From positions 1 through 61,151 of the forward strand of contig MEDY01000295.1 in NCBI GenBank assembly GCA_001724265.1: a stretch of 61,151 bases of DNA, written 5' to 3'. The translations under genes and the position numbers were made by a program. The notes beneath the pieces were generated by a model. That model did no database searches, had not been told where the DNA came from, and saw only the letters and a list, made by a program, of their open reading frames with translations. Positions 10,018-51,371 of the stretch are shown here, in pieces. Each line of letters opens with the position of its first letter. Positions within the stretch are counted from its first letter, which is position 1. Source of the stretch: Rhizaria sp. SCN 62-66. Its lineage: Eukaryota.

Positions 10018-10766
10018 GCCATCCGCCCATAGTCTGTCTTGCAGCTGCTTAGCTTACGCTTGCTTCTATGTCGGGAAATTCTTTACTTTGCGATGCTAAG
10101 CAACGCTCTTAAGTATCTGCACTTGCCAGTTGATGCTATGCACTTTTGTGTCGTTTCTCGCTTTTCTGATTCTAGAACAATACACACATCTATTCAGATC
10201 ACTACACACGCTTGTTAGATCACTGTCTGGAATTATCACTGTTTGATCAAGTCAAGAGGGTGTACATGCAGATTTCGCTTGTAACCGGACTGTTCGAAGC
10301 GGCGGTGACGTCGATGCAGGAGAGCATAGTGAAGCCATAACACACATATTCCTCCGATAACAAGGATATTTTAACATTCTTGCTGTTTAACAAATCTATT
10401 GTGACAACATTCTATTATTCCACATCTACCAGTGCACTTCTTGGTCTCCACTGAGCATTGAGTCATTGGTCCTTTCACGTTTGTGGTGCTTTGCGTCCAG
10501 TCCTCCTATGAATCTACTTGCCGTACTCGCTCTTTTCCTTCGCTATCATTTTAGCAAAGATGTTTCTGTCATTTCATTTGCTTGATATGACATTCTAATC
10601 TTTTCCATCCTTAATTCCGCTTTATGACAGGTTTTCGCACTACCAGACAAGCGCCAACCTCAACTTGCTCAAACTCCCACTCGCCGCTGTGCTCTTGCTC
10701 TGCTCCAGCTTTTGCCCCGAGCAAAGGTCTGTGCAGCCGACCGCGCACAGCTTGCTTTAAAGCTTA

Positions 10767-27300: not shown

Positions 27301-30300
27301 CTCGACGCGAACCGGGTTAGTAAGCCCAGTTGCCTCTGTGCAAAAAATGATGAAGGGATCGGACAAACCGCTGCCAGCAACAATCGTCGTAAGCGTCTCG
27401 GGTCCGCTGTCAATCAAGCAAGGAGCCGCATTTCCATCTTCAAGAATCAGGCGTACGCGATAGATTTGCGTCTTCGCAAGTGCTGACTCGTCTAAAAGAA
27501 CCAGGGGCTCAGTTGACATGGCATGCAGATAAAGCAAGACTACTTGCGTGCTTGCGGTGGCTAACTGCAAATTCCATGGGAACGGGTCAGGAATTTGCGG
27601 CTTTGCTGCTGACCGCACCATTTCTGTGTACGTTGCTACGGGCAGAGCAATTCCTGACCAGGCTGGCGTAATACTGCCGGTATATGTCCATGTCATTGCT
27701 GTGGGATCTATGGGGTCAACCCAATGTGAACACGCAATAGTGGGTTGTAGTTCATTGTCTGCCTCAATGGACGGGTTAGAGGCATTGACCACTGTAACTT
27801 GCCATATACCGTTCGCTGAACTGATACCGCCTGTGATGGTAAATGTAAGTTCGTTAAGCGATGAATTTATGCTTGCCACAACACCATTCGTAGAAGCAGG
27901 CATTGACACAAGTTCGACAGAGGTAACCAAGGTGAAAGAAGATGATTGAGGACCCCAAACAGTGCACACGACATCTGAGTCTGGCATTGGGAAAGACTGC
28001 AGAGGAAACGCCAGAGTCAAGGTCGTCAGCCCACCACGCGTCATATCACTAACCGTCACTGTTGTAGGTGTCTCGTCAACGGAACGCAAGAACTCAATAA
28101 CCGGCGTCTCACTCGGATTGAGCGCACCCATGACCGCAAGATACGCGCCATGCTGGGTGTAAGACATGCTAATTACCCGTGCAAAACCAGTTTCCCGCGC
28201 GTAGTAATATACGACGTCACTATCTCTGGTGCTGTAAGGATCGGCAATGTCGGCCTTGCGATAGTCGCGGCTGGGAGATTTCGTTATACGAACCATTGAA
28301 CCTAAGGTTTGGTCACTGCGCAGCAGGAGATTTGCTAAATCCGTGTTCGCAAGGATGCGTACAGCCACAAGTGAGCCCGTGTCAGCGCAAGCGGCAGTAA
28401 GCATGGTGCCTGAAGGATGGACAGCAAGTGCGGAGACCGGACAAACGGTGTGAAGCGAGCGCACAGAGTTCATAGTGTATGTCACAACGCCAAATATGAC
28501 GGCAAAACGCAGCGTAACAATGTCTCCTTCCGCTGTGCCAATGTAAATCTGACCAGAAGATGCATCCAACGCAGCTGCCGTTGGAGTGACTAACCCCCCC
28601 TCGGAGGTTGTCAACGTTTCAGTCGCGGAGCCAAACCCTGAGCACGTGAGGCCGAAATCGTCGACTGTCGGGTCGTCTGTTGCGCGGTTTGGCACAGCGA
28701 GCTTTTCGCGGATAGAAGCAGCGCAAATGCGGACAACACCAGAAGAATAAACGAATACAATGCGGGTGGTCGGAGATGTCTTAAGCGTGAGCTCGGTTGG
28801 CGAAGTCCAGTCTAGAACGGCAACCAGCTCGTCACCGGCAATTGGGCTAGCGAAGCTAATGGGAGTCTGCATGCGGGTCAGTAGCTCGCGAGTTAGCACA
28901 TTTGCGGCACCTGAGGCGCGCAGCGTACGCGGATTAAGCCGGGCCAAAAGCACAACCTCCTTATCGTCATTGTATACAATAACGAGAGCGCCAGTGATTT
29001 CAGCCGAGGATACAATGTACATGTGCGCTGCACCGCCGCCAATGCGAAACTCAAAGAGATCAGGATCAAACGGCAAGTCGACATACCACTTTGCGTGATC
29101 TACTGGGAGTGGCTTAGATGCAGAAAGGGTAAAAAAGCGCATTGCACCAACTCGCGTGCCTGTCGGGGTTTCAGGGACGAGACTCACGAACGTTCCCTGG
29201 AAGCCATATGCTGCAGCGTGCGTTGGTACAGGGGCGGCGCGTGTATTGTCTTGCACCGTCCAATCACCCGTAATTGTGGTTGACTTGTAGGCGTACTCAT
29301 AGCATCCACGATGGTAGCTTGAGAAAGCGTAACAAAAGGCGTATTGCGAGTTAGCATTCCAGCTAACCTTAACACCTGACGGAGGTAAGTACCGGAGCGG
29401 CGCGCGGTGAGAGTAACCAAAATGACCTGTTGGGCGCGGCGCTGGTCTCCTATACGCATATGGTGCAGCAGTTACAGATGCAGTCGCGGATCGTGTAGCT
29501 GAAAGTGCGCTGGTAGTCAAGGCTGGGTCAACACTGTCGGCGGTGGACATTATACCGATAAGATCAATACGAAGCACAACTGAGCTCGGATATATTGAAG
29601 GTAATTGTGGAGTGCATGTTATCGTTGTGGTCGGTGTGCCGATAGTGCAAGTTGCTGCGTAGGTCTGAGCAGAGTTGTGTGCGGTCACGGTGGCTGTTTG
29701 CGAGGTCATTTGGAAGTAGGGCTGCGTAAACGTCCATGTTGCGGCACTGTGAGTGGAGTCTGGCGAGGCAAAGACGATGCTCATAATGCCCGTTTCGCCC
29801 ATAACAGGGTTGCTGAACTCGATAGCGATGACTGTCGGTGTGGAGCCACCAAACCAACTTGTCTCCGGAAAAGACGTGTCTCCCATGCCCAGCAGAAAGC
29901 CATCACCACTGGCGCGAGAGACAACGCGAAGAGGGTTATTAACGCTAATACTGGAGGAGTTACTCAAACTGCCGAATTCACCATAGGCAAGATCGCGTGT
30001 GTACGGGGATATTGTGTCGTACAATGGGGCGGTCAACAGGAACGTAGCGGGCACGGTCATAGTCGTTCTGAACGCAGTGCTTGTCGCAACTGATAGTGTG
30101 GTGTAAGAGCCCACAACGGCACCAGGAGTTGTCATTGCAATGGTCTCACTGTTTAGAAGAAACTCGTGCGTCTCGCCACTGCGGGCATAGCTTACAGTGA
30201 TATCAACGGATGAGCGTGCCGTTACTGTAGGGCTTAGCACAGGCATTGCGCGAAGCGTGCGCCACAGAGCCGGATCACCAATAGCAATGAAGAACGTCTC

Positions 30301-33300
30301 GCGGTCAGGAGACGCTATGATGGAAGGGATGCTGAGATGGGTGGCAGCAGTAGACCCCGATGGAAGCACAAAGTCAACCTTGGTGTGAATGCTGCTACTC
30401 TCATACTGGGGCGTGTCGCTAATGCGCGACAACACCGTAATATAGCCGTATTTTGCAAGTACTTGATCGACAGCACCCGCCCGGAGCAACACAATTTGGT
30501 TCTCGAATGAAGTAAATTTCATGTCAATAATAGGCTCACCAGGAACAACGGCTGCGAGGATGGCTGTGTTGCTAACGCCGGAAACCATAGAGATCTCGCT
30601 TATCAAGGGTTGGTCCTTTGTATCAATCCTTGTAGCAACAGCTAAGCACTCTTCCGGGCCGACTCCCGTTTGCGCACCAAAGCACATGTCAACGGCAGTG
30701 ATTGTAGCACCTGGTCGCGAGTCATTATAAACGGTTGAGAGCTCGAATATTGTCGTCTGCTGATCGCGCTTCAGAAGTTTGCACGTGCTTCCCAAGGATA
30801 AGGATCCGGGCTTGCTAATTCGCAAGCAAGCAACAAAGCCAAATGCGGCCTGTGAACTCGCAAAGGCAGTGATGACACTAAACTCGTTAAAAAGAATCTG
30901 TGTGCTCAGAAAGCTTAACGTGTTATCATTAGACAGTGCATATGTGACTATCGATGGCCCAACAGGGACCAGGACAACCGCAGACGCAGTGTTGCGCAAA
31001 TGCCAGCCGTTGATAGCAGGAGCAAAAACTGGAAGCTCTGTTGCTGCCAGCCCCGTGGACACTGTTGTTTGTTGAAACGGGAGCGCAACGTCGCACGTAA
31101 TGTGTCCAATGGTAAAGCTAGCGCCAACAACAACGAGCAGTGTGTTGTCGATGTTAACAAAAACAGTGCGGTCATCGGGCGCTACAGTCATCGCGTAGCG
31201 CGCGCCCTTGGGCAGGTCAGCAATCTTACTCCACCCCGTCCCCTGCAGTTGATATGACGTGTAAGGCGAGGACGCGTCACTATACTTATCGAGCGTCAGA
31301 GAAGTCATATAAAGCGCATTGTTGGCAACCGAATAAATCACGCTCATGCTCGGCGAAAGTGCAGTTGCAGAGATCTGTACAAGGGGTGCAAATGAAGACA
31401 TTTTTGGTGCACCCATGTACAGACTCCGCGGCAGGATGCGGTTGCGAGGCGGAGGTGGCGCATAGGTGATAAGAAACTCTCCCGACACCGCCGTAAGCGC
31501 TGTGTCCATATACCACGCAGCAAACAGCGCAGGTCTTAGACTACTATCAGCAGTCGTTATGTCGTGTGAGATACCACTGATCAGCATTGTGACAACATAT
31601 GTTGTCTGCTTTAATCCTGATGCAGCCGAAGTACAAGCGCAACGCGCTGGAAGCACGGCCCCCAATAACTCTGGTGACGACAATGGATCCCCATGAACAG
31701 ACGCGCCGTTGAACTCAACAAGAGCCTCTGTAAGCCTAACTGAAGAACATGTTTTCATCAAGAGCGTTGATGTCTCCCACTGGTCAAGCGAGGAAACACC
31801 GCGAGTGTGAAAAGCCACTGTAGTTCCAAGCGAAGTCGTCGTCCCAGTCGGCAGCGAGAAACAAAAGGACGTCTCTTCAGCGGAAGGCACCGCGTTAACC
31901 TTAAACGAAACTGCGAGCGCAAAGCTCTCACCAAGACCAACGTATCCATCGCCTTGAACTGCTGCATTGGCGGCAAGATACACCGGCGCGACAGTACTAA
32001 ACTTACGGTCGGTTGCGAGGTAGCGGTACGGCCCGGTCGTTGACATAGAAAGATTGGCTGTGGGCACAAAGGACATGCGCGACTCGGGTTTTGGCTTTGC
32101 GGGAAGCAGCACGAAAGGTGCATTTGTTAGTGTCCCGCTGAAGAGGAAACGGTTTAGCCGAGTTTTTGTTGGAGATACAGCACGCATTATCATTATGACA
32201 TTGCTTTGCGTTGCAAGTAAATCACGGTAGCTAGAGTCCTCTGTGTAAAAGACATTGGTTGTGAGAAGCGTACACACAACACCCGCTGCGACAGCGTCAT
32301 CGCTGTACTTCAGCACATACTGAAACCCTAGTGCTTGCTTCGTCTTTGCATACGTGCTATTTGTAACGCCGTGAGCAAAAAGATCAAACACAGGCGTTGT
32401 CTGTGTCAAGGCAGACCCCGTGCCACACGTAAGCGTGGTTGTCGCCGTAGGTGACAAGAAAAGCAGTGATTGCTCGTGCATAACGCCTGTTAGCACCGGC
32501 ATCAATGGAAACATGACATAAAGCACCGCAAAAACACTCCCCGATGTCGGCATGAATACAGACTCCTGCGCGGCAAATGTGGCCTGAAATGAGAACGCAC
32601 GCCCATACGTCCCGCCGTGCGCAATCTTGCGTAGTGTGAAAGACACAGTCATCGGCACAGCAAAATCAGTGCGCAGTGCAAGAGGGACGGTACTCTTGGC
32701 AATCGCAGTTTCGGCTGTCGCAGTCCGATCGAGACAAACCGTTAAGGTTGCCGTGGGCGAATCAACCAACCGATCAATATCGATGGTGGAGTTACGGCGA
32801 ACTATAATGAACGATTTTTCTGCTGGCCATCCTTTTGTGAACTGAATCCAGGCCTCACCTGTCGCTAAGTCAACCCCGGTTGAGCCCATATTGGAGTTGG
32901 TATAAGACACCAACGTGTCCGGTGAAAGAACGATAAGCTGCAGTGCATCTGCAATATTGGCCCATGACATAGTCAGTGTAAGAAAGTAGTTTGGTGGAAT
33001 TGGCATTGCAGGCGTGACCAAGATCCCCATGTCAAGAGCAGCGGTGACAAGCGCAACAGGAAAGTCGCCACTTTGGGGCGCCAAACTCTGACCGGCATCA
33101 GCCCACTGTGGATACCAATACATCGAGTGCATTATAGCGGCAACTGTGCCCAGCAAAAGTGGGTTGCTTTCGGTGCTAACCAAGACGGTTTTTGCGTACG
33201 CACACGACGCTCCGTTAAAGAAAACTTGGAACGCGACAGCAACAGTGACATTAGAAATACAAATCACGCCAGGAACGCTTACACTTTGTGATGAGTTGTT

Positions 33301-36300
33301 TGTGAGTTGTACTGCATATGTAGCCGTTGGAACATCCCACTCTCCAAAGCGCTGGTGAGTGTAAGCAGCAAGTCCTGTGTTTTGCAAAACGCGGAGCGTT
33401 GTCAGGAACGGAAAAAAAATGACACTACGGCCCGAAGGTCACCTCGATTAAGGCCTCACTCAGGAGTTCATTTGGCACAGTATCAAGAGTAGTTTCCAGC
33501 GTCAAGTACGAGCGCCCAGAAGCAGAGTGCAGTGTCGGAACTAATGTGGGCGCCACAACCATTGTTGCTGAACTCATCACTTGGAGTTCCGCAAAGTGTC
33601 TATAGCGGACAAGACTGTTTGGTGACACAATATCAAGCGTATACACTTCACCCGCCCGATAGCTTGCGGGAGCAGGAAACGTAATTACAAGCACCGCACT
33701 GACAGATTGCAAGCAGTAGTATTGCGATGGACTCGCTAGAGTCAGCTTGAGTGAGCGCAATGGGCTCAATGGAACCATCGTCAACGTGAGAGTATTCGTC
33801 CCCCCCGCAGTAAGCGGCACAGTCATCTTAATCGCGGCAGCGCTGAATGCAGCGAGCACGGCACCAGTTTGCATCGAAGGGGGAAATGTCAACACCATAT
33901 ACTCATCAGAATTAATCATCACATTGCCACCAGCGCACATGTCCGTTGGCGCAATGAGCGTGTGAACCAGATCTGTGGTTGTTGCAGCATTAAAGTATGA
34001 AGAAATGCTCCCGCGGATCACGTCAAAGCGCCCAGTATACAGCTGTTGACTTTTGTCGTTCAAGATCGTCATCTCAACCTCAGCGCGTTCAGATGTCGAG
34101 GTGCCAATTTCAGTGTTCTCAATAGTGAGCGTCAACAGATCGCCTGAGAGTGTACCACAAGAAAAAATAGGACAATTGATAGCGCGTAGCACGTCGGGTA
34201 GCGAGCTCTCGGTCGCAATGCAGACAAGGTCACAGCGATTTGACGACGAGTCTGTCAACGATGCCTCCACAGTCATTGTGGGCGGCGTCGTTGCGACAAA
34301 ACGTACCGTGGCAGATGCGCCTTGAAGCTTAATTTCTAGTCTCTGTGTTGCTGAGACTGCTGGGCTCCAATATGGTACGTTAATCACAGCGCGCAGCGGA
34401 CCATAGTTCTTTTCAGGTGTGAGTGAATGTGTCACGTCCGTTATTGAAGTTGGGTACGCACCAGCGGCAAAAGCTGGAATTACAGCTATTGCGCGCAGAG
34501 CAGTACTGGACATTAGCCGCAGCTCGAGTTGCTGCTCAATAATAAGATGACTGCAAGAGACTGTAACGCGCAGAGTCGTTGAGCTTGTACCTGCTGCAAA
34601 GCACGAAGTCAGAGGAACATTAGCACCTGCAGTCAGAGGTTTGCACAGCAAACTTATAGGCGTCGGTAACAAACGTTGAACGCTCTCAAGCACAACGTCA
34701 ATGGGGGTGTTGTGTGGTAATGCGTCGCGCGTAACTAAGGCAAGCTCCATGTCGGCTGCGACGTCGTTGATCGAAGTCCAGGTCATGTCACAAGTAATCA
34801 TGTAGCGAGTAGTTCCAACCGAGTGGGTGCACGATGTTGCTACCGAGTGCGCGGGTGTGTCTGAGAGAATCATCTGTTTTGTGGCATACGCAAAGGCAGT
34901 TGTGACGGCTACGGCCACTGCGCCATAACCAATGTTCATAAGCTTATGTTCATAGAGAGTCATTGCGGCAGACGTTGTGCGACTTCCCATAAGCTCCGCA
35001 ATCACAACCAGGCGGTCAGATAGCGCAGAGACAGCTACTTGCTTCACATCTACAGTCACCTTCATATTGATCATGCTTGCGACATATGGAATGACGATTA
35101 CACCCGTTGCGCCAACGGCCACAGGCGCACTTGCAGAGCCGGTTTCCACAAGCACACTGTACTGTGCAGAGCCGTAGCTGATACCAGTTAAAGGCAGTGT
35201 TAGAACAAAGTTCATGTCAAGATGAGCCATTGCTGTTTGTGTCGAAAAGAGTACAATGCTTAGAGCCCTCTCGTTTGTTCCGGAAACTGCAAATAACGCA
35301 CTAAAAATACTTAGGGGCGGTGTCGGCGCTTGCTGGGGCTCAAGAGCATCGGGAAGCACAGCGATTGGCACAAGCGTGACAATTTGTGCTGGCTCAGTCA
35401 TTGTCCGCGAAAGAATTGTCAGAGACTGCATTGGGTTTGCAGGACCTGAAGTAAATCTGCGTTCAAGCGGGAAACGCAACACGCAACCAGCTGTGGACGA
35501 GCACGCAGGTACTGCAGCCGTGACTTCGGTGGTAACGGTGACCGCGAATGATGATGATGGAATCTTTATAGCAGTAAATCCTGCAGTGGTGAGAGGAATA
35601 TCCGCCGGGTAGTCGTAGAATGTAAAGTCTCCAGTAGTCGGAAGAACAAAGTCAAAGCTTGGCATTCCCGTATACCAGAACATGTCAAAGAACGTAACCT
35701 GCAGGTGAAATGGTGCCGCAGTAAATACGTCAGTAGTGCGAGTACGGTCTACAGTAGCCTGTAACGGTGGAGGCGCTCCAACAGGGTAGAGCGGGGCACC
35801 TGAGGTGGTTGAGGCCTCGAATATAAGTTGGACGATAATACAATCAGGCGCAACGTATGCCGGGGAGTCGAAAGTAACAAGCTTTGTGGGGTCAAGCTCT
35901 AAATGAGAAAAGCCAAACGCAATCGGATATGAGGGCTCAAACGGGCCATCAGTGCATGTAACTGTCAGGACTGTAGCTGTGACACTTGCAAGCAAACAGC
36001 CCGATGTACCGGGATGAAAGACCGAGTTCACAAAGCTCGACTTCGGTGACACAGGACAAGTCGTGCTCTTTGCGCTCAGAGTAACTTTCACATCAATTGT
36101 CACAGTTGGAATGACGTTTGTGAGCACAGCACGAATGTCAAGCCGTGCGCGGTGCTGCGTCGCTGTCGAGTCACGCGTTAGTGTGGCGCCGTACATAAAC
36201 ACATTAGGCGGTGGGATTGAGCCGAGCTTGACATCTTGCAGCGGATGGTATGTTGTGACTGGTGCTTCGGTGCTAGTTAAGTTGAAGCAACTCTTGGGTA

Positions 36301-39300
36301 TAGTAAGTGTATCCTTAAAGGCGCTTTCATTTACATGCTCAAGAAAGTAAGCGTCAGCTATCCTAAATCCAATGTACTTGGGTTGAGGCGTTGGCATACA
36401 CGATGCGGGGACAGACATTGTGGTGAAACCGCCACTATACCGAGTGGTGCAAGTGCCACTGTCTTGATTGAGCAGATTGACTGGCAGGCCGCTGGTGTAG
36501 ACACCGCAGTCAGAGCCCAGCGAGAGTGTAAACTCGGCAACCGGCGATCGAAGTGGGAATACAAAAATGTGCAACGCTGTTGTCAGGTCTGTCATCGCCC
36601 AAGAGTGCGCGGCTAAAACTATGTGATACGCAAAGGGCAGCACACTTGTCGACAACGGGTTTGTCAGTGGCTGATCGAGGAATGCATTTGCAACTTCTGT
36701 AATAAGTCCGCCAAACATGTAGCTGGTATCAAGGGTAAACGTGAAGTCTGTGGTAGCAAAGGCGTTGAACTCATAAGGAACACTGAACTTGGCCAAAAAC
36801 GAAGTGAAGCAACGTTCTTCAAGAAGGCAGTCCGTTACTTTGCCAGAAACCGTGTTAGAGCATGTTTCTGAGATAGTTGGTGCATCAACCACCTGCGTTG
36901 ACAGAGCGTACGCATAGCTTGCAGTTAATAATAACACAGGGCGGAAGAAAAATATCTTGAAAAGATATGTCTGGTCTGTCATGGCCAACACAGTGGGAGG
37001 CTCTGTAGCGTTCGAAACTGTGGCTGAGGTAATTGTGGTGATTTGGTGAGAGATAACAACGGCTGGAGGGGAATTCTCAATTGTTTGCACATCCACATTA
37101 GTGTTCTGCTGCGGAATAACAACGGAAGCAACATTCATACCCGTCATGCCAGTTGACGCGGAGTAAGTCATGAACAGGTCGTTGTAATTAGCGTACGTGG
37201 TGCGCACGGGACCAAAGCGAATAACGCGCGGGACAAAGAAGAGATTGCCTGCACTCGTGACAGCGTCGCAACCACTTAAACAAAGCTCCGTCGCGCTGTT
37301 TGCCGTAACGGTGCAGGACAACGCTGTATATGAAGACATCGAAGGTTTGGTCACGATACCCGAGTTAAAGACAAGTGCTGGTGCAATCGTAGCCTGCGCA
37401 GTGAAGTTAATACCCCAGTCTGCTGAAAGCGCTTTATGCGGGAAGATAACAACTTCCCATGTGACGTCGATTGGAGCGGTTGCGTGCGTGGCCTCAGCTG
37501 GGTCCACAATGGATGCAAGGTTTGCGGTCACAGGATACCATGCAAAATCCAGGTCATGTGTAATGGCCTGATCGAGGGCAACTATAGATGTCCCGGCCTT
37601 AGCTAAAGTGCCGGTGGCGCTTGAAAAACCAAAACACTTTGCCGTGTCAAAAGGGTAATAGCTTGCTGCAGTCACATCGAATTCCACAAACGTCGCAGTG
37701 TAAGTGTTTGAGCGCTGACCTGCCGTAAAGCTAACTGCGCCTGTGCCAGCAGAAATTGTCAGGCCAGGGCAAACAGCGGTGAGAACAGAAGTGACAAAGT
37801 TGAATGCAACTGCTGTGGTGGGAGTTGTTGGATACGCGTAAAGGGCCAAAGACAACTTCAATAGCCGTGTAGCCATTGTCGCACCCTGGACAAGAACGCG
37901 GTCCGTTGAAGCCCAGTGATAGTAAAATGCAGGCGTTGACGTAATGCGCAGCACAATATTTGTCGCAAGCGCCGCACCAACAGTGGGGTTCGAAGGTGAG
38001 CGAAGAACAACAGCAGTTCGTAGCAAAACATACGGATCGTCGGCAACGACCCGCGATGCAGAATTGGCAAACGCTACAGTCATGCCTGTCACGGTGCACA
38101 TAAGCAGAGTTGACACACCCTGAGAAATTGTCTTAGTTGAGGTGAACAACAGCTGCGTTGGTGTTGGCGTTCCCGACACAACACAATCACCGGAAAGCGT
38201 CACCGCTGTAAAAATTAGTGAGTCTGAGATTGAAACTAACGAAAGCACGTCAGTAGTTGTCAGGGCTTCTGCACCTGTGATGGCAAACGTTCCTGAGACG
38301 GTTGTAATAACTTGCAGCGGATTCGATGCTGGCGTAATTGAAAATTCAGTCGCGGTGTACGTCACCTTGACGTACGGAATGTGGCCCAGTGAAACATCAT
38401 ACAAAGGATAGGTACTAGTCGGTGTGGCAGTGACAAGGCTAAAACAAGACGCGCTAAGAGTCTCGTTTGAGTAAAACGGCGAGTCTTCGGCATCGCTAAG
38501 AAAGTAGCCCGTGTCAATCTTGTAGGCCAAGTACTTTGGTTGCGGGGTTGGCATGCAACTTGTTGCCACTGAGACTGACGTGATCGTGGTTGGAGCGCAC
38601 GCGCCTTCAAGATTCTGATATGTCACCATCTTTCCAGTACCCTGATAAATGCCACAGTCACTGCGCACTTGAATTGTGCTTGTGTCGACAGATGTTGTAA
38701 GCGGAAAGATGTACAGTTGCAAAGTTGCTGTGAGATCTGTCCCAACCCAGACCCGATTTGTCAGACGCCACACCCAGTGTGTCCGTCGTAAATGCGTTGA
38801 CAGTCGCACTGCTGGCACCGCCAAGAGAGTACGTGTAAGTCATGGTAAAGACAAAGTTTTCCTTGTCGTATGAGGTTTTCTCGTAGGAGACAGTAAATGT
38901 GGAGCTAAACGAGACAGACATTTTAACAGTTCCTGACGCTTGGCACGTCACACTTCCGGCAACTAGAGTGGGGCATGTACCATTCGTTGTTGGCGTCCCC
39001 ACGTGAGCTGCCGAAGCACTGTACGAGTAACCAATCGTCGATGTTGTGATGGCTTTGAAGAAAAAAACCTTGAAAAAATAATTCTGGTTCGTGATCGCGG
39101 TCACCGTGGGTGTTGTTGTTGTCGGATCCTCAACGTTAGCCGAGACAACATCTTTTGTCCACAGCATTGGAACAATGTTTGGCAGAGACTGCTCGGCAAA
39201 AATACTGCCATCGGTCACGGCAGTATTTTGCTGCACAATACCAGCCTTTATGCTGTGCGTAGCAAGTACACCAGGATCTGCCGCATAAGACTGAAACACA

Positions 39301-42300
39301 GTCATGTAGTCGGCGTATGTGGTCTTAGTTGCGCTGAAGCGCAGGACACGTGGAGTAAATTTACCGCTGCCGTCATTATCAATACTACTACAATCAGAAA
39401 ACTGTAGCAACACTGTACTTATCGGCGTAATCGTGCACGACAGCGAAGAATACTTAGTCGTAAGTGGCGACTTTGCGACTAGGCCTGGCGCAAACACGAG
39501 CGTTTCTGCCATTGCTGCTAGGGTTGAAATGTTAAAAGACCAGCTAAACAACGCCATGTGAGCGTAAACCACAACTTCCCAGTCAACGTCAACCGGGGCT
39601 GTGGCATGTTCCGGATCACGCGGGTTCACACTGCTTGCAAGCTGTGCAACCACAGGGTAAATGACAAAGTCAAAGGGATATGTTGTTGAAACGTACGAAA
39701 TGTCGATAGCGCCAGCGCGGGCAATGGCACCTGTGTTTGAGCTTACAGTGAGACACGTGTTTGTGATAATGGGATAGTAGTCAAACGTATCTGCGTCAAA
39801 CCTAAAGCTGAGGACTGTCGATCCACTTGTAACGCGGTACAACGTCGCTGAACTGGTTGCCATACTGTTAGAGCCGCCTGATAATGTGAGTCCCGGGCAT
39901 ACGCTCGAATCAAGTGCAACGGTGTAGTCAAACGTGACGGATGATGGTGTCGACATATACATGTAAAAACGCGTCTGAATCTCAATTTGCCGCGTTGATA
40001 AAGTCGCACCACGTACTATCGAACGAGATATGGCCCCGATGTGCCAGAAGTATGGAATAGCATCAGTCGGGCGCGCAACAATGTTTGCGATGGAAGGCAA
40101 GCCCGCTGAGTTGACAGGTGTGCGCAACAAAAGAGCATTAGGCAGCAAGACATATGGATCTTCATCCGTTACACGTGCGGCGGCGTTATTGTGTGCAATC
40201 TGTAGGTTGGTGAACACACAGAATATTGAGGCAGATGAATTAGCTGTGAAGCTTTCGGTCAATGTAAAGCTAACCGCAGTGCTTGTAGGTGTGCCACTAA
40301 TAACGCACTGCCCGGAGATTGTCACACCAGATAGATCAAAACAGGATGCAATTCCGGAGGCCAGTGTGAGGACTGCACCAGCCGCGAAGGTCTCACCGCG
40401 GACAATCGCAATTGTTGCTGTAATCAGTGTTATTGTTTGTGTGAAGTCTAAAGCAACGGGACTAATTGCAAAAGCAGTTGTTGTAAACGTGTAGGGCGTT
40501 TGAGCAGGTCCAATGGCAATATCATGTAAGGCTGTAACTGTTACTGCCATGGTGTCTGTTAGAGTGAAACACGATTGTGGCACTAGTTGATTTGATGCGT
40601 ATAACGTCGAATATACGTTGTTTAATTTGTACGCCGCAGCAAGCTGGAAACCAATAAATTTGGGCTGATCAGGCATGCACGCTGCGGGCATTGACATCGC
40701 AGTAAAACCGCCACTGTAGCGACTCACGCATGTGCCATTAGTCTGACTATTAATCAAAGCAACCGGTTGGCCGGAAACAAAAGCACCACAGCCACTTTGT
40801 ACAACGAAATTATAAGGGATAAACACATTTGTGTGGGGGAATAGATAAAGATGGATCTTTGCCGTCAAATCCACTCCCGTCCATGTGATATCAGTCAACA
40901 CAGTCGTAAACTAAAAGGGGAGACTTGACGTAATGGGCGCGCCAAGAGATGATCCTGCAAACGCTGGCATTGTTAAGGAGTCGTTTCCAGCAGTCACATA
41001 AGTAAGGTCGACTGTAAAGCTAAACTCGTTGTCTGAAAACGACGTTTTCTCGTAGGGAACTGTGTACTCACCAGTATAGAATGAGAAAAACATTGCGGGC
41101 GTTAGTATAGACGAGCACGTAATGCTGCCCATTGCGTAGCCGGAGCAGGCACCTGTCAAACCTGTCGAGCTCGTGGTGACCATGCCCGACGATGCGCTGT
41201 AGCTGTAGACGACAGTTGCAGCTGAGATGCGTTTAAAGAAAAACAAACGGACAAAGTAGTTTTGTCTCGATGAGCCCGTGACCGTTGGTGTGAGTGTGAC
41301 GGCATCCGCAACGGTCGCAGTCGTGATTTTGTCGAGTAAAGCGCAGCCACTGCGCTTGGTTTGGAGATCGTGGCATCGATTGTGTCATCAGACATATCGG
41401 TGTTTTGCTGCGATGCACTGACGCCAGAGGCTGTCGTGACAGCGCCTTCAGATACGTTGTACGTCTTGAACAAGGAGAGGTAGTTCGCGTACGTGGAAGT
41501 CACAGGACCAAACCGGAACACACGTGGTGCATAGTAGTTACTAGAGCCGCTGACATTACTACAGTCACTCGCAGAGACCGCAGCTGCGGTGCTATACGTG
41601 ACCGTACAGTCAATCTGTGTCAGCCCAGAGCTGGCGGTAAATAACGATGTCGGAGTCGCAGTCGTGCTCGACGCAAATGCGCTACGGGAAGCAAGGTCAC
41701 CCTGCAATGTGAGTGTGAATCCCCAACCGGCAGCAAGCGTTTTATGTGCGTAAACAATGACTTCGTACTCTAGGTCAACAAAAGCTGCTCCATGTGTCAT
41801 GCCGCTTAAATTGATGCCAGATTGTAGAGTCGCACGCACAGGATAGAACAAAAAATCAAAGTGACGTGAGTACTCTGACACTGGCTGCACTGCACCAATA
41901 GCCCGTGTAATCGACCCCATACTAAAGCAAGACAAGTCTAATAAGTAACGCGCCGTGTTTGTGACATCAAATGTAATCGAGAAAGTTGTGTCTTGTGTGA
42001 CGCGAAAATCGCCCGTTGGCGTAACGGAGTTCGAAGGTGTCACAATTAAAATGTCAGAACATGACGATATGACTGTGTACGAGATGACCGCCGAGTTCGG
42101 GTTGGTGGCGTACAAATATACGCGCAACCCGACATTGATTGCACGCGTAGCTGACAGCACAGAGCCTCGGACGAGGGAGCGGTCGCTTGGCGACATGTGC
42201 CACCAGTAGGCTGCCGTATTAATGGCACGGATGACAATGTTGGCAGATGCGGAAACGCCAGTTGTAATTGCCGGCGACGTAAGAATTAACGCGTCTTTGT

Positions 42301-44755
42301 TGATTATATACGGGTCGTTTGCCGACACGCGCGAGTCCGTATTGGCAAAAACAACGCGCAGATTGGCAACGGAACAATAGATTATGCTTCCGACATTTGC
42401 GGAAGCTGTTAATTTAATTGTTAACTTGTCACTTACTTGTGTTGCAATAGCACACGTGCCGCCTGAAACTGTGGCAGACGAAAAGTCAAAGGATGTAAGC
42501 GCCACAGTGAAAGCAAGCAGCGAGCCTGAGGAAAGAGCTTGACCAGTCATGATTGCAAATGTTCCAGCAAACGTTGAAACAACTTGGGCATAGTTTGTTG
42601 CTTCTGGAGTAAGAACTAGCGAGCTTGGAGTGTAAGTGTACGATAGTGTGTGCATGTTGGCAATAATGGGATCTGCCAGTGATGTTGCAACAGTGGTAGG
42701 CGTTCCCGTGGTTGATCGTGTTGTCAGATAAATCATCAGGCAATATCCTGGAATAGCTGGTTCCTTATTGTCCATTGGCGCCTGTACATTAGTAATGCTG
42801 AGCTGAATCCCACCTGCAGCACTTATAGATGCACCGACGTTGCATTGAAAAATAAAACGCGTTGTGTCAGCTGAAACTGTGGTGCACCCTGTGTTTGCAA
42901 TTGTCGACTCTGGCGAGAAGAAGACCGGAGAGTCTGAACAGAAGCGTATCACACCACGCATGCCACCACCGTTGTTAAAAAACACCTCGAGCCCGGTATT
43001 GTACCACGTTGAGAATGATGTCGTATACAAGTTGTTCGAGCCTGAAGTGCCCGTGAGTACTAGGCCCACAACTTCGAGCTGAAGCTGAGCAGGCGTATAG
43101 ATGCGGGTTGAAGCGTAGTAGTTACCACATCCAAAGTAGTCCCAGTAACTCGCATTCATATACGTAAAGCATGTTGCTGGGCGCGCCGCTACCTTCAGAT
43201 CTGATGACGAGAATGTTGAGAGTGTGTCGTTAGTGGTCGCTAGAAAGCGCAGCGTAAGGCTGTTTGCAATATCATGTTGATAGAATGGATAACCAAGATC
43301 AAGCATGAAAACATAGTCAGTGTTTGATTTCTTCTATTTAAGTGATATAGACTGAATTGGCGCTTCGTTGGACTCAATAAGTGGTTCTGAAAATGGGAGG
43401 TAGGGATGACCTGGAGTGATGTAAGTGAGTGAGTCAATAATGGCGCCGGACGAGGTTGAAATCTCAATATCAAAATCGCACTGATTTGTGTAAGTAAACG
43501 TATAAATCGCGTCTGCGTGCGCAGCTTTAATTGACGCCAATGAACGTTCTATAATATTGCGTATGTTAACTTCTAGAATAAACGACGTTTCTAGGGGGGA
43601 CCCCACGCTTAAGATTGCTACAGAAAGCTGGTATGGGTCATGTACTGCCACTGAAGTGTTGACTGTCATTTTTGTTCCCCCGATTGAGTACTGTGCGGCA
43701 AGTAGCCTGTAAAGCGTGATGAAATTTGAGTCAAAAGTTGATCCGCTTTTTGAAACAGATGCCGTCGGGCCATAACCGGATCCTACAGTTGATGTCCACA
43801 TCTTTTGCGTGAGCGCTAAAGTGCTGGAACATCCAGACACGACTAAGCCCGACGGCAAGCAGGGGGTGTAGCTGCAATTCTTAAATGCGGTTGCAGTGCT
43901 ACATGGCGAATCTACAAATGCATTGTTCTGAGGGAAGAGTGTCAAGTACGTCGAGAGTGTAAACGACGAGCAGCCTGTACACGACAGAGATATGAGTGTC
44001 TATGAGGCAAAGAGAAAGCTAGCATCTAACACGCCCTCCTAACTTTCATACCTTACCTCTGACACAACCCTGACTCCATGAACAGTACCACCTGCTGCAG
44101 CCTGCGTCGCAAACAAATGATCTTGTTGCTGTTGCGGTAGTGCTGTGGGGAAGAACGTGTTGGAACTTGGGTTAGCTAAAAGGTAGTCAGCATTCTTATA
44201 AATGCCTTGAATTCTTTTAAAGTTACTGAGGAGACCTTCATGTTGTTGTAGGTGTTTTTGTGCGTGCAGCAACGCGAAGCGTTCGTCACGAGCGGCAGCG
44301 ATGCGCTCGGCTTGGAGAGCGACGACCTGCTCCTGAGTCTCGAGCGGCGTGCCGGGGGTAAGCGGCGGCGGAAGTCCGTCAAGTGGCTCGCCAAGCTCGG
44401 CCCCAAGGGCACGCCAAAGGCCCGGGGGCAAGTGTGCCGGGTTCTGGAGCAAGAGGCTGTGCAGCGTCACATTCTTGATGTTGAGGCGATCGACGAATGT
44501 CTTGTACAGAATGGTGCGTGGCAACGAGTTTAGGTTGAACGGGAAAGAGCTGGGGAGTGCTGAAACAGGAAAGTTGGCTTTAGGAGAGTACTAAGAGGCG
44601 TCAACGCTGCTCTGCTATTGTGCCTGCTCTGAGTTGGCATAGCCCGCTAGAGAGACTGAAGTTGCAGAGCCTGAAGGAGCACAAAACATCACCATGAAGA
44701 ATGCCAACATGGCGAGCGCGATGAACGCGTCTCTGATACCCCATCTCCCAAACAT
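15378..44755 (-). CDS. Giant (~9,800 codon) multi-pass surface or receptor-like protein; up to 8 in-frame TAGs and 4 frame breaks
   Basis: ATG at 44755 (upstream in-frame TAA at 44816-44818) followed by a signal peptide. Successive ORFs join in frame through TAG at 44615, 44591, 44039, 44000, 43334, 40911, 33425 and 16743. Frame changes near 41330, 38765, 33415 and 26655. Domain order is coherent and the gene ends with TAA at 15378-15380. It may be a damaged allele or carry assembly errors. Confidence 0.78.
16040..19125 (-). other. Multi-pass membrane module (~9 hydrophobic helices) split by a ~660-aa low-complexity loop
   Basis: Preceded by C..GH.GPLC.VC..GY; contains FKVAVSGLQV...WP, SLDC, HP.VT..FF..LSC, FLYRGYK...YYW.....RK and KPF. 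This pattern is typical of protist Cys-rich TRP-like transmembrane proteins. Confidence 0.75.
19740..20730 (-). other. Two IPT/TIG-like domains followed by TNFR/ephrin-receptor-like Cys-rich repeats
   Basis: CPTDGGDIRLTVTGSGF...VGGRQC...LTCKLPAGSG and a second similar unit; then repeated C..C.PG.(F/Y) units. Confidence 0.75.
21556..23460 (-). other. Eight Sushi/CCP modules plus one calcium-binding EGF domain
   Basis: Eight repeats of C...Y.C..G(Y/F)...C....W....P.C, then DIDEC...C...CINTFGSYVC. Confidence 0.85.
36210..42650 (-). repeat. Three tandem, diverged ~715-aa (~2.15 kb) protein modules
   Basis: Motifs recur at that period: DPY(I/V)..; PRV(F/L/I)RF...TYA(N/D)Y; QQNT; (I/L/V)FFF; V(P/S)YE; CMP..QPK(Y/F). 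Confidence 0.85.
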
Positions 44756-45540
44756 TCTGTTCTGCAGTAACAATAGTGGCGCTGGTGATAGCACTGTCAC
44801 CACAGAAAGTGGGTGTTATGTACGTCTAGCGAGCACAGATTGTGGTGGAGGGCCGGTCTTACTGAATGCGAGCCGCTAGGCAATGCTTATGTCCTCTGTT
44901 CTAGGGTCAGACAAGATTGCAATCACAGGACAAAACGTGGTGAGCCAGGATAAAATGAAGTGATATCACAACTTGCATGTGTGACCATGGTGAGTCGAAA
45001 AGAAGTTGGTGGCTGAGGTCGCACTGGGCGACAGCTGCTTCCCAGGAAATATTGCTCTAATATACTATCAATACAGGGCTTTTGAGCAAGCCAGCCCGCT
45101 AATTAGATGTGAATATGAGTGATCTGTCTAATGATGTTTGACACCGACTCGCTCCCTGGAGTCTTGGCGAGCTATCGAGCGCGAAATGAGATACTGTCAC
45201 CATGGCGCCTTTGGGGCCTAGTCGACTGCCTGCAGCCGAAATAGGTGCCCATAAAATCGAAGCACCGCAAAGCCTATAAGTTTCCAAGTACAATATTTTG
45301 TGTGCTAACTATATGCCGAGCTCAAATCTTCAATCCTGCTTTTAAAACACCGAAATACACTGGAGTCTGACACCCGTCGGGCGACTCTTCTTCTCCACAG
45401 GGTCGCCAGTCTGCTTCTTCAGAATTTTTTTTTTTTACTGCGGTGGATTTTTCGGCCCTGGTGACAATCCGCGACTCCACCAAACTTGCTTGCTTGAGAA
45501 GCAGGTTAACCTTGAGAGAGTATATTTCTGTAATGAGATC

Positions 45541-46132: not shown

Positions 46133-46957
46133 ATGGCCGACAACGGCAAGAACGTTGAGGAAGCCACGCGCGAGGCCCTTGTGTCTCTCCTCTCCAACGT
46201 ACGTCTAAACCCCGCATACCATGTCACTATATCGCACTTTTCGACACAATGATTCTATCAAAGTCAAAGTAATTCAAGATATAGTACGACTCAAATATTG
46301 AAACACGATTTAAGTTAAATTAACACATAAATCATGATATCTATGTTGTTTACTCGTTCACAGTTCCGCCAGTTCACCGCGAACCTCGAGTCGCTGCGCG
46401 CCGACGTCAACACACTCGACGGACTGATTCGCCGCACAGAACACAAGGTCGACCTCACGCACACGCCATTTGAGCGCGAGTACTATACTCTTGTTGGAGA
46501 ATTCAAGAGCAAAATCGCCGAAATTGCCGCCGCAATGCCCTCCGCCGCCGCCCAGTCAAACTCACACTCCAACTCACAGTCTCAGCAGGCCCAGGCTCAG
46601 GCGCAGGCGCAGGCGCTGTTGCAGTAGCAGGCGCTGCTGCTGCAGACGCAGGCTCAGAGCTCTGAGCCCGTCTCTGTCGCTGCGACAGTGGCCGCGCTGG
46701 GCCCAGCGTTGGCCGCAGCTATTACCGCCTTTCCGGCTTCCCTTTCAGCCCCTAACGACCACAGCAACAACAACAAGAAGAGCGGCGCTAACGCGAACAG
46801 TGCGAGTGCGAGTGGCGTTGGAAAGGGCCGGCGTAAGAGTGCTGCTGCTGGTGCTGGTGCTGGTGCTGGCTCAGCTAATGCGAGTGCAAGTGCAACTGAT
46901 GCTAAGACGCCTGTCACCGGCCGCAAGCGGCGCGCGCCTGAGGTTGAGGCTGATTGA
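46133..46957 (+). CDS. Small two-exon protein (~219 aa): helical or coiled-coil N-terminus, low-complexity basic tail; in-frame TAG at 46625-46627
   Basis: Exons 46133-46198 and 46364-46957 join in phase 0 (VSLLSN|FRQFTAN). CAG-TAG-CAG links ORF 46334..46627 to ORF 46688..46957 in frame. Ends with TGA. NLS-like GRRK and RKRR lie after the TAG. Confidence 0.8.
46199..46363 (+). other. Spliceosomal intron, 165 nt
   Basis: Donor GTACGT, acceptor TTCACAG, AT-rich; removal keeps the frame. Confidence 0.85.
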
Positions 46958-47267: not shown

Positions 47268-50200
47268 TTAGACCGCCTGCCCCACTGCCCCCGGCAGCAT
47301 AACCGCAGCGGCAGCAACAAACCACAGCGGCAGAAACAGATTATCCACATGCGCCGTCGCGGCCTCTAGCAACGCCGCCCCTGCCGCTAAGACAGCGACG
47401 GCTCCAGCCCCCACTGAGTCGCCGCCGCGCGCGAGTCCCCCCAGCACCGCAGCCACCGCGGCCCCCGTGGCGGCGGCGGCGGCGAGCGTGCCCGCGAGCG
47501 TTTTGCGCCCTCCTCCGGGCCAGCGCGGCCCGCGGAGTAGGGTCCCGGCGATCGAGGCCGCGGAGTCGCCGACGCCCAGTGTGATGAGGCCGGCGAGCGC
47601 GGTGACCGTGGCCGCGGCAGGCAGCTCGGGCGCCCACCAGGGCTCCATCACCGAGGGCGCAAACGGGCTCACCACAGCAGGGTCAGATGAGCTGTGACTG
47701 GGCGGCTCAGACTGCTGACTCTGACTGTGGCTATGAGAGTCGTCCTTGTTTTCATTGTTGTTCTTGTTTACGTGGGAGTCTAAGGAGATGGTACTTGGAT
47801 CAGGCTGTTCTTGGACAGGGCGATAGGGCGTATATATAACATGGCAGACATCAAAGTTGTCATTGTTTAAGTGTGACTGCAGTGACTGTGCGCGTGAGAA
47901 AGCGTTCAACACGACAGTGGACAGCAGTGGCGGCACCGCAGGCGCTTCCCCAGCCGTGAAATCAATACGACTGCGACTAGAACTAAAGGCACTGTTACTA
48001 TCATCGTTGCGACTCTTGTCGCTCTTGCTGTTGCTGTTGCGATTGATATTGATCTTATTGATGTCGTTAAAGACGACAGAGCTGCAGCGTAACGGCCGCG
48101 TCGTCGGTGCACTGATGCCCAGGGCCCGCCACGCTGCCGCGACGACGGCCGCAGCCGCAGGCGCCGCGGGCCCCTCGAGCGGGGTCGCCACCGCCAGGGC
48201 GCGCGCGGGCGCCGTGGGCAGCGGTGCCAGTGCCGTGACCACCCAGACCGGCACCGCGCATCCTAACAGGAGAAACACGTGGGTCAGCGTGAGCTCGCCA
48301 GAGTCGCGGGAGTCGGTGAAGGCGCTGTAAAACGACTGGAGCAGCGGGCCGAGCGGGCGGAGACGCGGGGCGCGCACGGCTTCGGCCAGCAGAAACAGCG
48401 CCAGCGCCGCTGCCAGGGCTAAGGAGGCGAAGCCCGGGTCAAGCAGGATAGGCGGTGCGAGTAACATGACTGCAAGCAAGTGGTAACCTTTGCGGAGAAT
48501 GGTCAGTGGCGTGCTCACGGTCACTTTAGGGCTACTCACGGTCAATTTAGGGCTGCTCACGGTCACAGCTTGGTAGTGGTCTGCTTGATCGAAGTCGTCG
48601 TCGCTGCTCAGCGTCACTCCTTGTTGCTGCTGTTGTAGCTAGGCAGCATTGCTCACAGTCATGTTCGCACTGCTCCGGTCCACATGAAGCTCGGCAGTTG
48701 CCGTGAGGTCGCTCACAGTCATCTCCTTACTGCTCACGGCCACTTTGCTCACGGTCAGTCGGTCCAGAACAAGGGACGCACGGTCACTGTTCTTCGCAAT
48801 CACAGCATAACCCCTGCTCGCGTTCATGGAAGCGCCGGCACTCGTGCTGCGCACGGCTTTAAAGCACTTGCTATACACTGACTGCTGCTTCTGTGCTTTG
48901 TGATTCACACGACTAGCGTGCTTACATCCGCGTTGATTCGTGTTCTTGTCCCCTTCACAGTCGCTGTTGCTGTTGTCGTTGTCGCAGCAGCCCTCGTTGC
49001 CGCTTTTGACCGCCGCGACCGCGACCCCGCCCACCACAAGCGCGAAACACGCCCCCAGCAGCCAGACGCGGGGCGCCGCGGTCCCCGCCGCGACCGCGGC
49101 CGCCAGCAGCCCACGCGGTGACTGTGAGCCCACGGGGTACGGCCCCGCCGCCACACCGGCCAGTGACGCCGCCAGCGGCAGCAGCAGCGGGGACGGCGCC
49201 AGCAGGAAAGAGAGAAACCACGATAGCGGCTCTTGCGGCAGCGCGAGCGTGACCAAGACGTAACACACGGGCAACAGTACGGCAGACAACACGAGCAACA
49301 CACGGGAGCCACGGCCAGACGCGTCTACGTGTCCCTCAGACCTAGAGCCCCCGTCAACAGCGTCTAAGTGCCCCTTAGACGTATCACTACCTGCACTCTT
49401 GTGATCGCGATTGCGATTATGTGGCTGTGCGTTATCGTCCTCTGTTGTTGTTGTTGCTGCTGCTGATATGATGAGTGGGAGGTCTAAGTACCCCTTACAC
49501 AGCGCCAGCGACACTGCGGCAAACAGTGCCCCGGCCGCGGCCACTGCTAGAGCCGCCGCAAGTGGAGGGTACAGAGGCTGAGCCAGCAGCGACGGTAACG
49601 GCTTCATAGTCAGCTGCCTCGCCGTGGTCGAAGACAGCGATGACCACCACGTTGACCACGATGACTGTGGGACACCACCGCCAGCGACCGTGAGCATCGT
49701 ATCCGCGACCGCGAGCACCGCAGAGATGACCGTGAGCAGTGTTTGCGTGACTGTGGGCAGCGCGACCGCGGCCCACAGAGCTGCGGGAGCTGCTGTAAGC
49801 AAACAAAGGCACCGAACATCACTGGCACCAAGAGATAACGGCGCTATAGCGCGAGCGCCGCGTAATAAAAGCACGGGCAGCGCTGTCAAAAGCGACAATA
49901 GCGCTACGAGGGAGACGGCGGCGACTACGGTCTGAATATCAGCGTGATAGACATCAATTGCGTTGCTGCTAATTTTGTTGTCGTTTTCGCTCCGAGTGGC
50001 TGCGAGCGGAGGGCGGTGGTGACGCGGCAGCAGCGACAGCAACGCCGGTCCCTCAGAGCCTGCAGTGACCGCGAGCACCCATCGCGCGGCTGTAGCAGTG
50101 GCCGCGAGCGCAGCGCGGGCGACCGCGAGCAGGCCAGAGCCAGAGCCCAGCGCCAGGCCAAGGCCGAGGGCGGCCGCGGCGACGGCGGCCGTGACCAGAG

Positions 50201-51371
50201 GAGACGACCCCCACAACAGCGGCTTCGACGGGGGTTGCGGTTGCGGCTCAGCGACAACTGGGGCAGCAGGGACAAACAAGCGGGGATTGACACCGAGACG
50301 GCTATTTGAGCTCGCATTAGTACGGCCGTTAGAGTGACACTCATCATCATCATCATCATCATCATCGTCAATAACACTCCCACAATCACTGGCGCGACTG
50401 CTGCTATTGCTGATCTTGTTGCGACAGCACTTGTCACAGTATATATCGTAGACAATGATCATCGCTGCAGCTAGAATGGTCCCCAGCGCCGCCAGCCTCA
50501 GCCCTGCCGCCGTGGCCGCCGCCGCCGCCGCCGCTGCGGCCTCCGAGGCGTGCGCATACGACGGTAACACGGCGCCAGACGCGGCGACCGGGAAGCGCCA
50601 TAGTAATAAGGCGGGGGGTAGTACCAACGACGCCGACGACGTCGACAACTCAGTGTTGTCATCCGCGTCCACGCCGCCCACAGTGAGGTCGGTGAGATTG
50701 GACGATAGGGCGGCTGCGAGTGCACAGACCAGCACGGGCGGCGTTGTGAGGCCGAGGAAGCGGCTACGGGGCAAGCGTCTGGCCACAGACCGGCGCAATA
50801 GACGCATGCGCTGCAACGCAAAGTCGGCAGCAACGCTAGAAACGTCGGGCTGTCGCTAACGCTGCTGAACTGCTTCAATAGGACTTGACAGAGAGCTAGA
50901 GCTAGAGCTGGAGCTCGAGTTAGATTTTCCGCTAGATTCAGAACCAATACAGCTATGAGAACCTGAGCTTACGACTGCGACTGCGCCCTGACTGCACACA
51001 GCCCCACTCTGCCGCCCATGCCCCTGCGGCTGCGATTGCGGTTGCTACAACCGCTCGACAGAGTCAGTGAGTGCTGCGACGGAGCACAGCAGCAGCAGCG
51101 CCGCCGCAAGCACTGGCCCCGCCAGCAGCCCCAGCCTCGCCACAGCACTGCTAAGCGCCGCGGGGGACAGCGCAGCCCACAGCGCCCACAGTAACCCCTG
51201 CGGCACCGCCTCAGCACCCGTGGCACTCGCGGCCTCGGTCAGTGGAGCCGGTGCAGAGGCAGTGAAGAAGGGGGAGCTGAGTGGGCGGCCGAGGAGCAGC
51301 GCAGCGGCGGCGGCGAGCGCGAGGGCCAGCAACAGCGCGCGCTCCAGAGCGCCCAGGAAGCCCACGCCCAT
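47268..51371 (-). CDS. DOLK: Dolichol kinase (Sec59/DOLK family), ~1367 aa with low-complexity insertions; in-frame TAGs at 51045, 50856 and 48639
   Basis: Family motifs RKGYH, FTDSRDSG.LTLTHVFLLLGCAVPVW, GLITLGVGDSAASIAG...RWP...KTLAG and LLEA....VDNLFLPL. Three ORFs form one frame from ATG 51371 to TAA 47268-47270. Confidence 0.9.
48513..48570 (-). repeat. Imperfect 21-nt tandem repeat encoding (V/L)TVSSPK
   Basis: About three copies: VTVSSPK-LTVSSPK-VTVSTP. Confidence 0.8.

Follow-up and report, generated by a model that had tools for sequence, protein, structure and literature searches.

UAG codons in frame within the dolichol kinase gene and other genes of an uncultured wastewater flagellate are probably read as glutamate

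Three in-frame TAGs in a dolichol kinase gene

How can a protein be made from a gene whose frame meets TAG three times before the conserved domain is reached? This question is raised by a dolichol kinase (DOLK/Sec59-like) gene on the reverse strand of the window, by which we mean the whole 61,151-nucleotide contig MEDY01000295.1 of Rhizaria sp. SCN 62-66. DOLK is normally essential for N-glycosylation, and all three of its TAGs (Table 1) precede the RKGYH motif. Thus the initial annotation was right that three UAGs need decoding to reach the C-terminal domain, and also that the first ATG after the third TAG (TAG3) lies past the RKxxH motif, this ATG being at 48467. It had treated the trait as that of one gene, whereas it is genome-wide, TAG being present in other intact genes as well. 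We propose that UAG in intact genes would be translated as glutamate by a tRNA of the tRNA-Glu type whose anticodon is CUA and that UAA and UGA end genes, and on the genome sequence we consider this reading probable; that UAG decoding is real and genome-wide we regard as very likely.

The DOLK frame has no TAA and no TGA in its 1,367 codons as against 22-52 TAA plus TGA in each of the other five frames of the same DNA. A homologue search with its C-terminal part gave eight matches, two of which are labelled 'dolichol kinase' by JGI (68% and 46% identity), and nothing significant was matched when Pfam, PDB, and NCBIfam were searched. Like DOLK/Sec59 proteins, it has the RKxxH, DxRD, H, G-D, and KT motifs and the C-terminal E-A-x-T...DN, which are found here in RKGYH, DSRDSG, THVFLLLG, GVGD, RKT, and LEAAT..DNL, all 3' of TAG3. 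The RKT segment may correspond to K470/K471/T472 of human DOLK (PMC4281381). Based on the JGI-named homologues and the motifs common to the alignment, we take the gene to be that for dolichol kinase. It differs from most of the matches in being about 1,367 aa long instead of 519-622 aa, because of low-complexity insertions, and it is these insertions that hold the TAGs. The TAGs sit in unalignable loops and are uninformative on the amino acid. Three TAGs in this gene exceed the sampled TAG rate (p 0.003). A second DOLK copy, the possibility of which had been raised earlier, was not found in the assembly (G000; 34.9 Mb, 714 contigs) by searches with the gene's own domain and with homologue P0249, both of which led only to this locus. 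A variant in ENA, P0247, has RKGSH in place of RKGYH (window 48483-48485).

Coding sequence resumes after TAG in several genes

Stop codons were surveyed with a Markov coding model in about 980 kb of G000, that is, 132 stretches which were partly picked for flagged TAGs and make up less than 3% of the genome. Among 215 stops with coding-like sequence upstream, coding resumed after 24 of 37 TAGs, 1 of 94 TAAs, and 0 of 84 TGAs (Fisher p 2e-21); seven of these 24 TAGs had been fetched since a family search had flagged them and three belong to copies of XPB that have decayed. When stricter criteria were used in a previous run, the counts were 10 of 11 for TAG, 1 of 37 for TAA, and 0 of 23 for TGA. 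The one TAA after which coding resumed is presumably in a copia-like (transposon-like) remnant. When 10 TAGs with non-coding-like sequence downstream were examined, no clear TAG terminator was found among them: three were intronic, two were in the wrong frame, two were inside Sel1-kinase genes, and the remaining three, with 6-16 further codons to a TGA, are possible gene ends. About 121 TAA and TGA stops (67 and 54, respectively) had no donor-like motif upstream, UAA is the commonest stop in the surveyed genome, and the DOLK, eRF1, and dynein frames all terminate in TAA. UAA and UGA keep their role as stops.

Exonic TAGs were found in otherwise intact genes for eRF1, DOLK, SUV3, and a Brr2/ASCC3-type helicase, in intact TKL, CaMK-like, and NEK-like kinases, and in a USP5-like gene. 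Nine of the 142 Pkinase matches had TAG only, and of these TAGs five were exonic and four were intron acceptors. The kinesin, SNF2, ABC, DEAD, myosin, AAA, tRNA-synt_1c, metallophosphatase, and HECT family searches gave no usable exonic TAG; the flagged TAGs that were cut out in these searches were intron acceptors or intronic, mixed-stop matches were mostly left aside, and the single TAG-only SNF2 match (C217) was left out of the inspected set.

A tRNA-Glu-like tRNA with a CUA anticodon

A first tRNA pattern search of G000 gave six matches, and one of these is a real tRNA with a CUA anticodon whose stems are fully paired and whose T and D loops are intact. In the acceptor and T stems it is identical to tRNA-Glu(CUC) at 21 of 24 positions and to tRNA-Glu(UUC) at 18 of 24, as against 7 and 8 of 24 for two tRNA-Gln; across the 23 tRNA stem types of the genome that were compared, the best other isotype had 16 of 24. 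Over the whole length without gaps, identity is 47/73 to tRNA-Glu(CUC) and 36-38 to tRNA-Gln. By these comparisons the tRNA is assigned a tRNA-Glu body. Two more pattern searches of G000, which were non-exhaustive, gave no further CUA tRNA and no UUA tRNA; no long-arm tRNA-Leu(CUA) was found in the pattern searches, the Rfam tRNA search scored 63 of 506 candidates, and when tRNA-Gln(CUG) was used as a DNA query, five identical CUG copies were the sole matches, with no tRNA-Gln(CUA) among them. A metagenome scan with the CUA-tRNA pattern found nothing. The program ARAGORN names any CUA tRNA 'Pyl'; this one matched only the generic family RF00005 and has normal GG and TTC loops, and no search for pyl genes was made. 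If this tRNA is expressed and charged with glutamate, as we suppose, DOLK would be made full-length.

The amino acid inserted at UAG

Two strongly conserved sites point to glutamate. The first is in eRF1, the gene for which has four exons, GT-AG introns, and a TAA end in addition to its own in-frame TAG. No second eRF1 copy was found in a search of G000, the other match of which we take to be Pelota. The TAG is opposite E107 of human eRF1, and in 117 homologues this column has E in 108, D in 8, V in 1, and Q in none. The second is in the hinge of an intact TKL kinase (L123), in which HRD, DFG, and APE are in frame downstream of the TAG; here E is present in 145 of 145 aligned homologues (of 148), including two likely orthologues. 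The homologue queries for both genes had Glu at the TAG and the columns were then counted with X. At weaker sites, the TAG of the Brr2/ASCC3-type helicase faces E in human Brr2 and N in ASCC3, that of SUV3 faces D in the human protein and S in a second PDB protein, and in kinase L103 the commonest residue of the column is E (12/40). When Pfam bits were summed over 12 segments, the lead of E was 13.3 bits over L, 9.8 over Y, 5.1 over S, 2.6 over K, and 2.1 over Q. If the two strong columns are used for a profile estimate, Gln comes out about 25 bits below Glu, a figure that is overstated because the homologues are related. Judged by sequence, both the tRNA and the sites under constraint speak for glutamate. 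With glutamate as the residue, UAG would be a poorly decoded rare codon that has been purged from strongly biased genes but can persist in loops of low complexity like those in DOLK, where many TAGs probably arose from CAG, replacing Gln with Glu.

Other sites were of no help. Column counts were uninformative for kinases L097, L098, and L102 against TKL-type homologues, the USP5 TAG column is beside an alignment gap, and when 20 proteins were scanned against Pfam a second time, no additional column was discriminating. That the TAG of XPB faces Glu in the nearest relative was withdrawn as evidence, both XPB pieces being frameshifted or splice-broken, and the broken RecQ-like (L131) and Sel1-kinase (L102) genes were not counted for either residue. 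Leucine (table 16 type) was rejected on its Pfam score and the lack of a long-arm CUA tRNA in the pattern searches.

Several observations weigh against glutamate. The strongly conserved columns are just two, the weaker ones being mixed E, D, Q, and K/Y, while published code cases rest on tens to thousands. The Pfam lead over Q is small (3.4 bits without the broken RecQ), as is that over K. The nearest eRF1 relative (P0005) has V at the TAG column. Human NEK1 has Q opposite the TAG, the TAG of a ubiquitin-like gene is CAG in the genome's own ubiquitin, and the TAG of one XPB copy is opposite CAG (Q) in the other copy; Sel1-kinase paralogues have Q, Q/D, and K, CaMK1 has K or Y, and in the broken RecQ the TAG is opposite Y or a deletion junction. 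Some TAGs lie in decayed duplicates. Acidic residues (D plus E) make up 13 of 198 TAG neighbours as against about 14% for GAG (p 0.001); for Q it is 14 of 198, a value that is lower than for CAG (p 0.008) and lies between those of the Glu and Gln codons. Finally, TAG is absent from 25,289 dynein codons.

Alternative explanations

The last point also bears on an alternative that we consider unlikely, namely, that UAG is ambiguous, with the single CUA tRNA working against a partly terminating eRF1 and near-cognate tRNAs for Gln, Tyr, and Lys perhaps adding residues. Near-cognate tRNAs are known readers of UAG. In a sample of 165,770 codons, in which some TAGs were pre-selected and a few are in broken genes, TAG occurs 33 times and is the rarest coding triplet (ATA 83, AGA 105), it is rare in Q-X-Q and in E-X-E contexts alike, and TAG-free frames reach 14,166 codons (HECT). 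Because TAG is so rare its decoding may be inefficient or leaky. Ambiguity also fits the gene copies, which are one for the CUA tRNA and at least eight for tRNA-Glu(CUC), and an eRF1 that retains NIKS, E55, L69, S70, and YxCxxxF and has T32 altered only to Ser; with TAG at the rates sampled, eRF1 would hold one with a probability of 0.02-0.08. However, in the dyneins, where no exonic TAG was seen in ten heavy-chain loci and which speak to rarity only, other rare sense codons are almost equally infrequent (ATA 2, AGA 2, AGG 3, and TTA 4); no clear terminator was seen among the TAGs examined, and DOLK tolerates three TAGs in series. If UAG is ambiguous, the yield of DOLK would be reduced. The initial annotation had dismissed both a pseudogene and leaky readthrough: the gene is indeed otherwise intact and single-copy, but the exclusion of leaky readthrough is not established, and costly or incomplete decoding fits the rarity of TAG.

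The rarity of TAG allows not only incomplete decoding but also feedback through eRF1. This protein carries T32S and G57S at two positions where all 117 homologues have T and G, T58K, which is common only to its nearest relative P0005 (84% identical), and L124M; these changes may weaken UAG recognition, and those at T32 and G57 also speak for the glutamate reading. Comparison of the T32S/G57S/T58K protein with a close relative having T58K alone would be a direct test of losing UAG recognition. The UAG at the conserved Glu107 is a possible autoregulatory site, and if UAG is ambiguous it could serve as a negative-feedback switch. It is conceivable, though rather unlikely, that the flagellate is mid-way in a code change in which tRNA-Glu(CUA) opposes a partly UAG-blind eRF1 and the eRF1 UAG forms a feedback loop. 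More eRF1 would then cause more self-truncation, which would tune the readthrough of DOLK and of every UAG gene, and the loop would parallel, in a eukaryote, the autoregulation of RF2 in bacteria; plant eRF1 autoregulation is the topic of PMC5397192 and prfB that of PMC13245932.

That UAG is glutamine, as in Iotanema (NCBI table 15 type), which would make TAG a synonym of CAG, is unlikely. It was our first guess from the Gln-rich contexts in DOLK, where all three TAGs, like several others, are in Gln-rich text, and it was abandoned as the tRNA body and the conserved columns indicated Glu. The sites facing Gln in NEK1, ubiquitin, XPB, and the Sel1 paralogues agree with it, but the majority of these belong to copies that are decayed or repeated, in which CAG mutates readily to TAG. 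Whichever code holds, such a transition would dominate where sequence is loose or decayed. Moreover, the three pattern searches gave only the Glu-type tRNA, Gln is found in 0 of 117 and 0 of 145 homologues at the two conserved columns, and with a Gln codon on either side CAA was counted 94 times while TAG is outside the 30 commonest triplets (2 in the listed sites).

It is very unlikely that the code is standard and that the TAGs are nonsense codons of pseudogenes, errors that stem from assembly or from oxidative G-to-T change, or sites removed by splicing or editing, with the CUA tRNA as a pseudogene. Decayed copies with TAG do exist in G000 (two XPB pieces, RecQ, and a Sel1-kinase), a giant gene in the window has four unexplained frame changes, and the assembly may be incomplete. 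However, apart from their TAGs the genes for eRF1, DOLK, SUV3, the helicase, and three kinases are intact, with no second copy of eRF1 or DOLK found in the searches of G000, and a tRNA as fully paired and intact in its loops as this one does not look like a pseudogene. Errors or decay should also yield TAA and TGA, and these were seen once and not at all as against 24 TAGs in the survey; in the giant gene the count is seven TAGs to none. Recorded gene calls break at the same TAG on 3-7 contigs for kinase, SUV3, and eRF1, possibly re-assemblies of the same samples.

The DOLK TAGs also recur elsewhere. Thirteen runs from bioreactor, wastewater, and sludge samples are listed, four of which were compared with the window; X2 and X3 gave identical pieces and were counted as one, and the small-share runs X6-X11 and window bins without RNA cover were left out as evidence. 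Contigs of run X4 (study P3, separate from the possible source study P1) cover all three TAGs and have only two further differences from DOLK, both synonymous. An RNA-library contig of X5 crosses TAG2 with 0 differences and 0 gaps, DNA in the library being possible. Thus for TAG2 the RNA, which had been suggested as a check, appears unspliced and unedited; for TAG1 and TAG3 no RNA piece is listed. GC within 150 nt of the DOLK TAGs is 0.56-0.64 as against 0.37-0.52 in three eRF1 introns. The earlier claim of no donor does not strictly hold, as donor-like 5-mers are present upstream of TAG2 (one) and TAG3 (two).

A bypass specific to DOLK, in which a short C-terminal enzyme (gene call P0247, 449 aa, which has every conserved C-terminal motif) begins at a GTG just past TAG3 and the upstream TAGs are irrelevant, is extremely unlikely because, although homology is weak 5' of TAG3, nine predicted hydrophobic segments and other RNA-library contigs lie there, and the TAGs in other genes and the CUA tRNA would be left unexplained.

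The organism and neighbouring genes

Because at least ten dynein heavy-chain loci are present in G000, the organism is taken to be a flagellate. The best named XPB match is the cercozoan Amorphochlora, with which it grouped (support 85/79) in a tree made from a copy that is decayed and partly out of frame, and its ubiquitin starts with MSM, which is compatible with the rhizarian polyubiquitin insertion described in PMC6133090, no monomer junction having been assembled. On this slight evidence from sequence, the uncultured wastewater flagellate is probably a cercozoan. The ubiquitin (L157-L160) is unusually divergent, e.g. LANKTITLDVDHSDTIETVKQ, and two copies end in RGG plus a short tail. The 18S rRNA gene (L040:1500-5945, G000:C706) is AT-rich, divergent, and about 4.4 kb long; insertions account for about 2.6 kb of this length and are probably group I introns. 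A metagenome scan with the relative's DOLK found nothing.

Table 1. Positions of the features described (window coordinates unless a contig or locus is given)
Feature	Position	Strand	Remarks
DOLK/Sec59-like coding sequence	47268..51371	-	1,367 codons + TAA, start ATG at 51371; long low-complexity insertions; 3 in-frame TAG
TAG1	51045..51047	-	codon 109; low-complexity Gln-rich loop; kept in X4 contig 50379-51279
TAG2	50856..50858	-	codon 172; unchanged in RNA-library contig X5 50655-50947, also in X2, X3, X4
TAG3	48639..48641	-	codon 911; insertion unalignable with closest relative P0248; kept in X4 contig 47550-48910
RKGYH (RKxxH) motif	48480..48494	-	common to DOLK homologues, by alignment
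DSRDSG...THVFLLLG block	48261..48314	-	holds D, D, H, invariant among the aligned homologues
GVGD...G to RKT segment	47490..47576	-	likely CTP-binding region, by presumed correspondence
TAA stop	47268..47270	-	directly after conserved C-terminus
tRNA(CUA)	G000:C84 (L041:1489-1561)	-	single; pattern search; Rfam tRNA 58 bits; T-run downstream
eRF1	L032 (G000:C63)	-	in-frame TAG at L032:1596; sole eRF1 found
TAG of neighbour gene	46625..46627	+	in frame, as in DOLK; in Gln-rich stretch; frame 46331-46957, ends in TGA
Giant Sushi/ephrin-receptor-like/TRP-like gene	15378..44758	-	internal repeats; 7 TAG, 0 TAA, 0 TGA in 9,762 codons counted

The frame changes of the giant gene are near 41320, 38780, 33380, and 26700, without an AT-rich intron, and may be assembly indels, recent decay, or programmed frameshifting. 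A metallophosphoesterase gene (window 10761-14063, forward strand) is split by long Ala/Asn/Ser-rich insertions; such insertions are general in this genome, as in the HECT frames mentioned above. The two XPB pieces, L130 (G000:C658) and L128 (G000:C310), are both decayed, with frameshifts and a TGA at a splice donor, and no intact XPB was located in G000. At L046:1555-2139 (G000:C681) a ubiquitin-like domain is fused to a Peptidase_S74 chaperone domain; this element is repeated and possibly mobile, with related text in L150 near 5100. L102, L103, and L104 belong to an expanded family, kinase plus Sel1-like, in which a gene holds several TAGs; one of the members is frameshifted.

Comparison with known genetic codes

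In the literature searched, which left most subscription papers and supplements outside its scope, no report was found of UAG as glutamate with UAA as a stop. If our proposal is correct, it adds a nuclear code in which UAG is Glu and UAA and UGA are stops, with the tRNA and eRF1 both seen in the genome, and UAG would be uncoupled from UAA in a GC-rich genome, to which the usual AT-pressure account does not apply. Since UAG is so rare, standard code predictors could miss such codes, which are therefore possibly undercounted, and public gene calls already break these genes at TAG.

Nuclear codes in which UAG alone is reassigned are those of Rhizaria sp. exLh (Leu) and Iotanema spirale (Gln) (PMC5304391), and of phyllopharyngean ciliates (Leu, Gln), Protocruzia tuzeti (Gln), and Scotinosphaera (Ser) (PMC11687900). 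The present genome resembles these in that UAG is sense, UAA and UGA are stops, and a CUA tRNA is expected or found, and differs in that the amino acid is likely Glu. Thr32 of eRF1, which has been tied to reading the G of UAG, is altered in Iotanema as it is here, but to Gly there and to Ser here, and exLh has L69A whereas L69 is kept here (PMC5304391). In our sample TAG is about 0.4% of Glu codons and TAG combined, whereas in Iotanema UAG makes up about 8% of Gln codons.

In these sources UAG as Glu is reported only together with UAA as Lys or as Glu, the codes that reassign UAG alone giving Leu, Gln, or Ser. In Oligohymenophorea sp. PL0344 (UAG Glu, UAA Lys) UAG is likewise read as Glu by tRNA-Glu-like CUA tRNAs, but UAA is sense and there are 10 CUA tRNAs, whereas here UAA is the commonest stop and one CUA tRNA was found (PMC10553269); PL0344 is a ciliate, and the organism here is probably a cercozoan. 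Peritrich ciliates and Blastocrithidia, in which UAA and UAG are both Glu, have a tRNA-Glu(CUA) derived from tRNA-Glu, as is likely here (PMC11687900, PMC12153298), and differ from our genome in that no UUA tRNA was found in it and UAA was read on in 1 of 94 cases. In Blastocrithidia the reassigned codons are avoided in highly expressed genes, which recalls the rarity of TAG here, and AT pressure is invoked, whereas the present genome is GC-rich (PMC11687900, PMC12153298).

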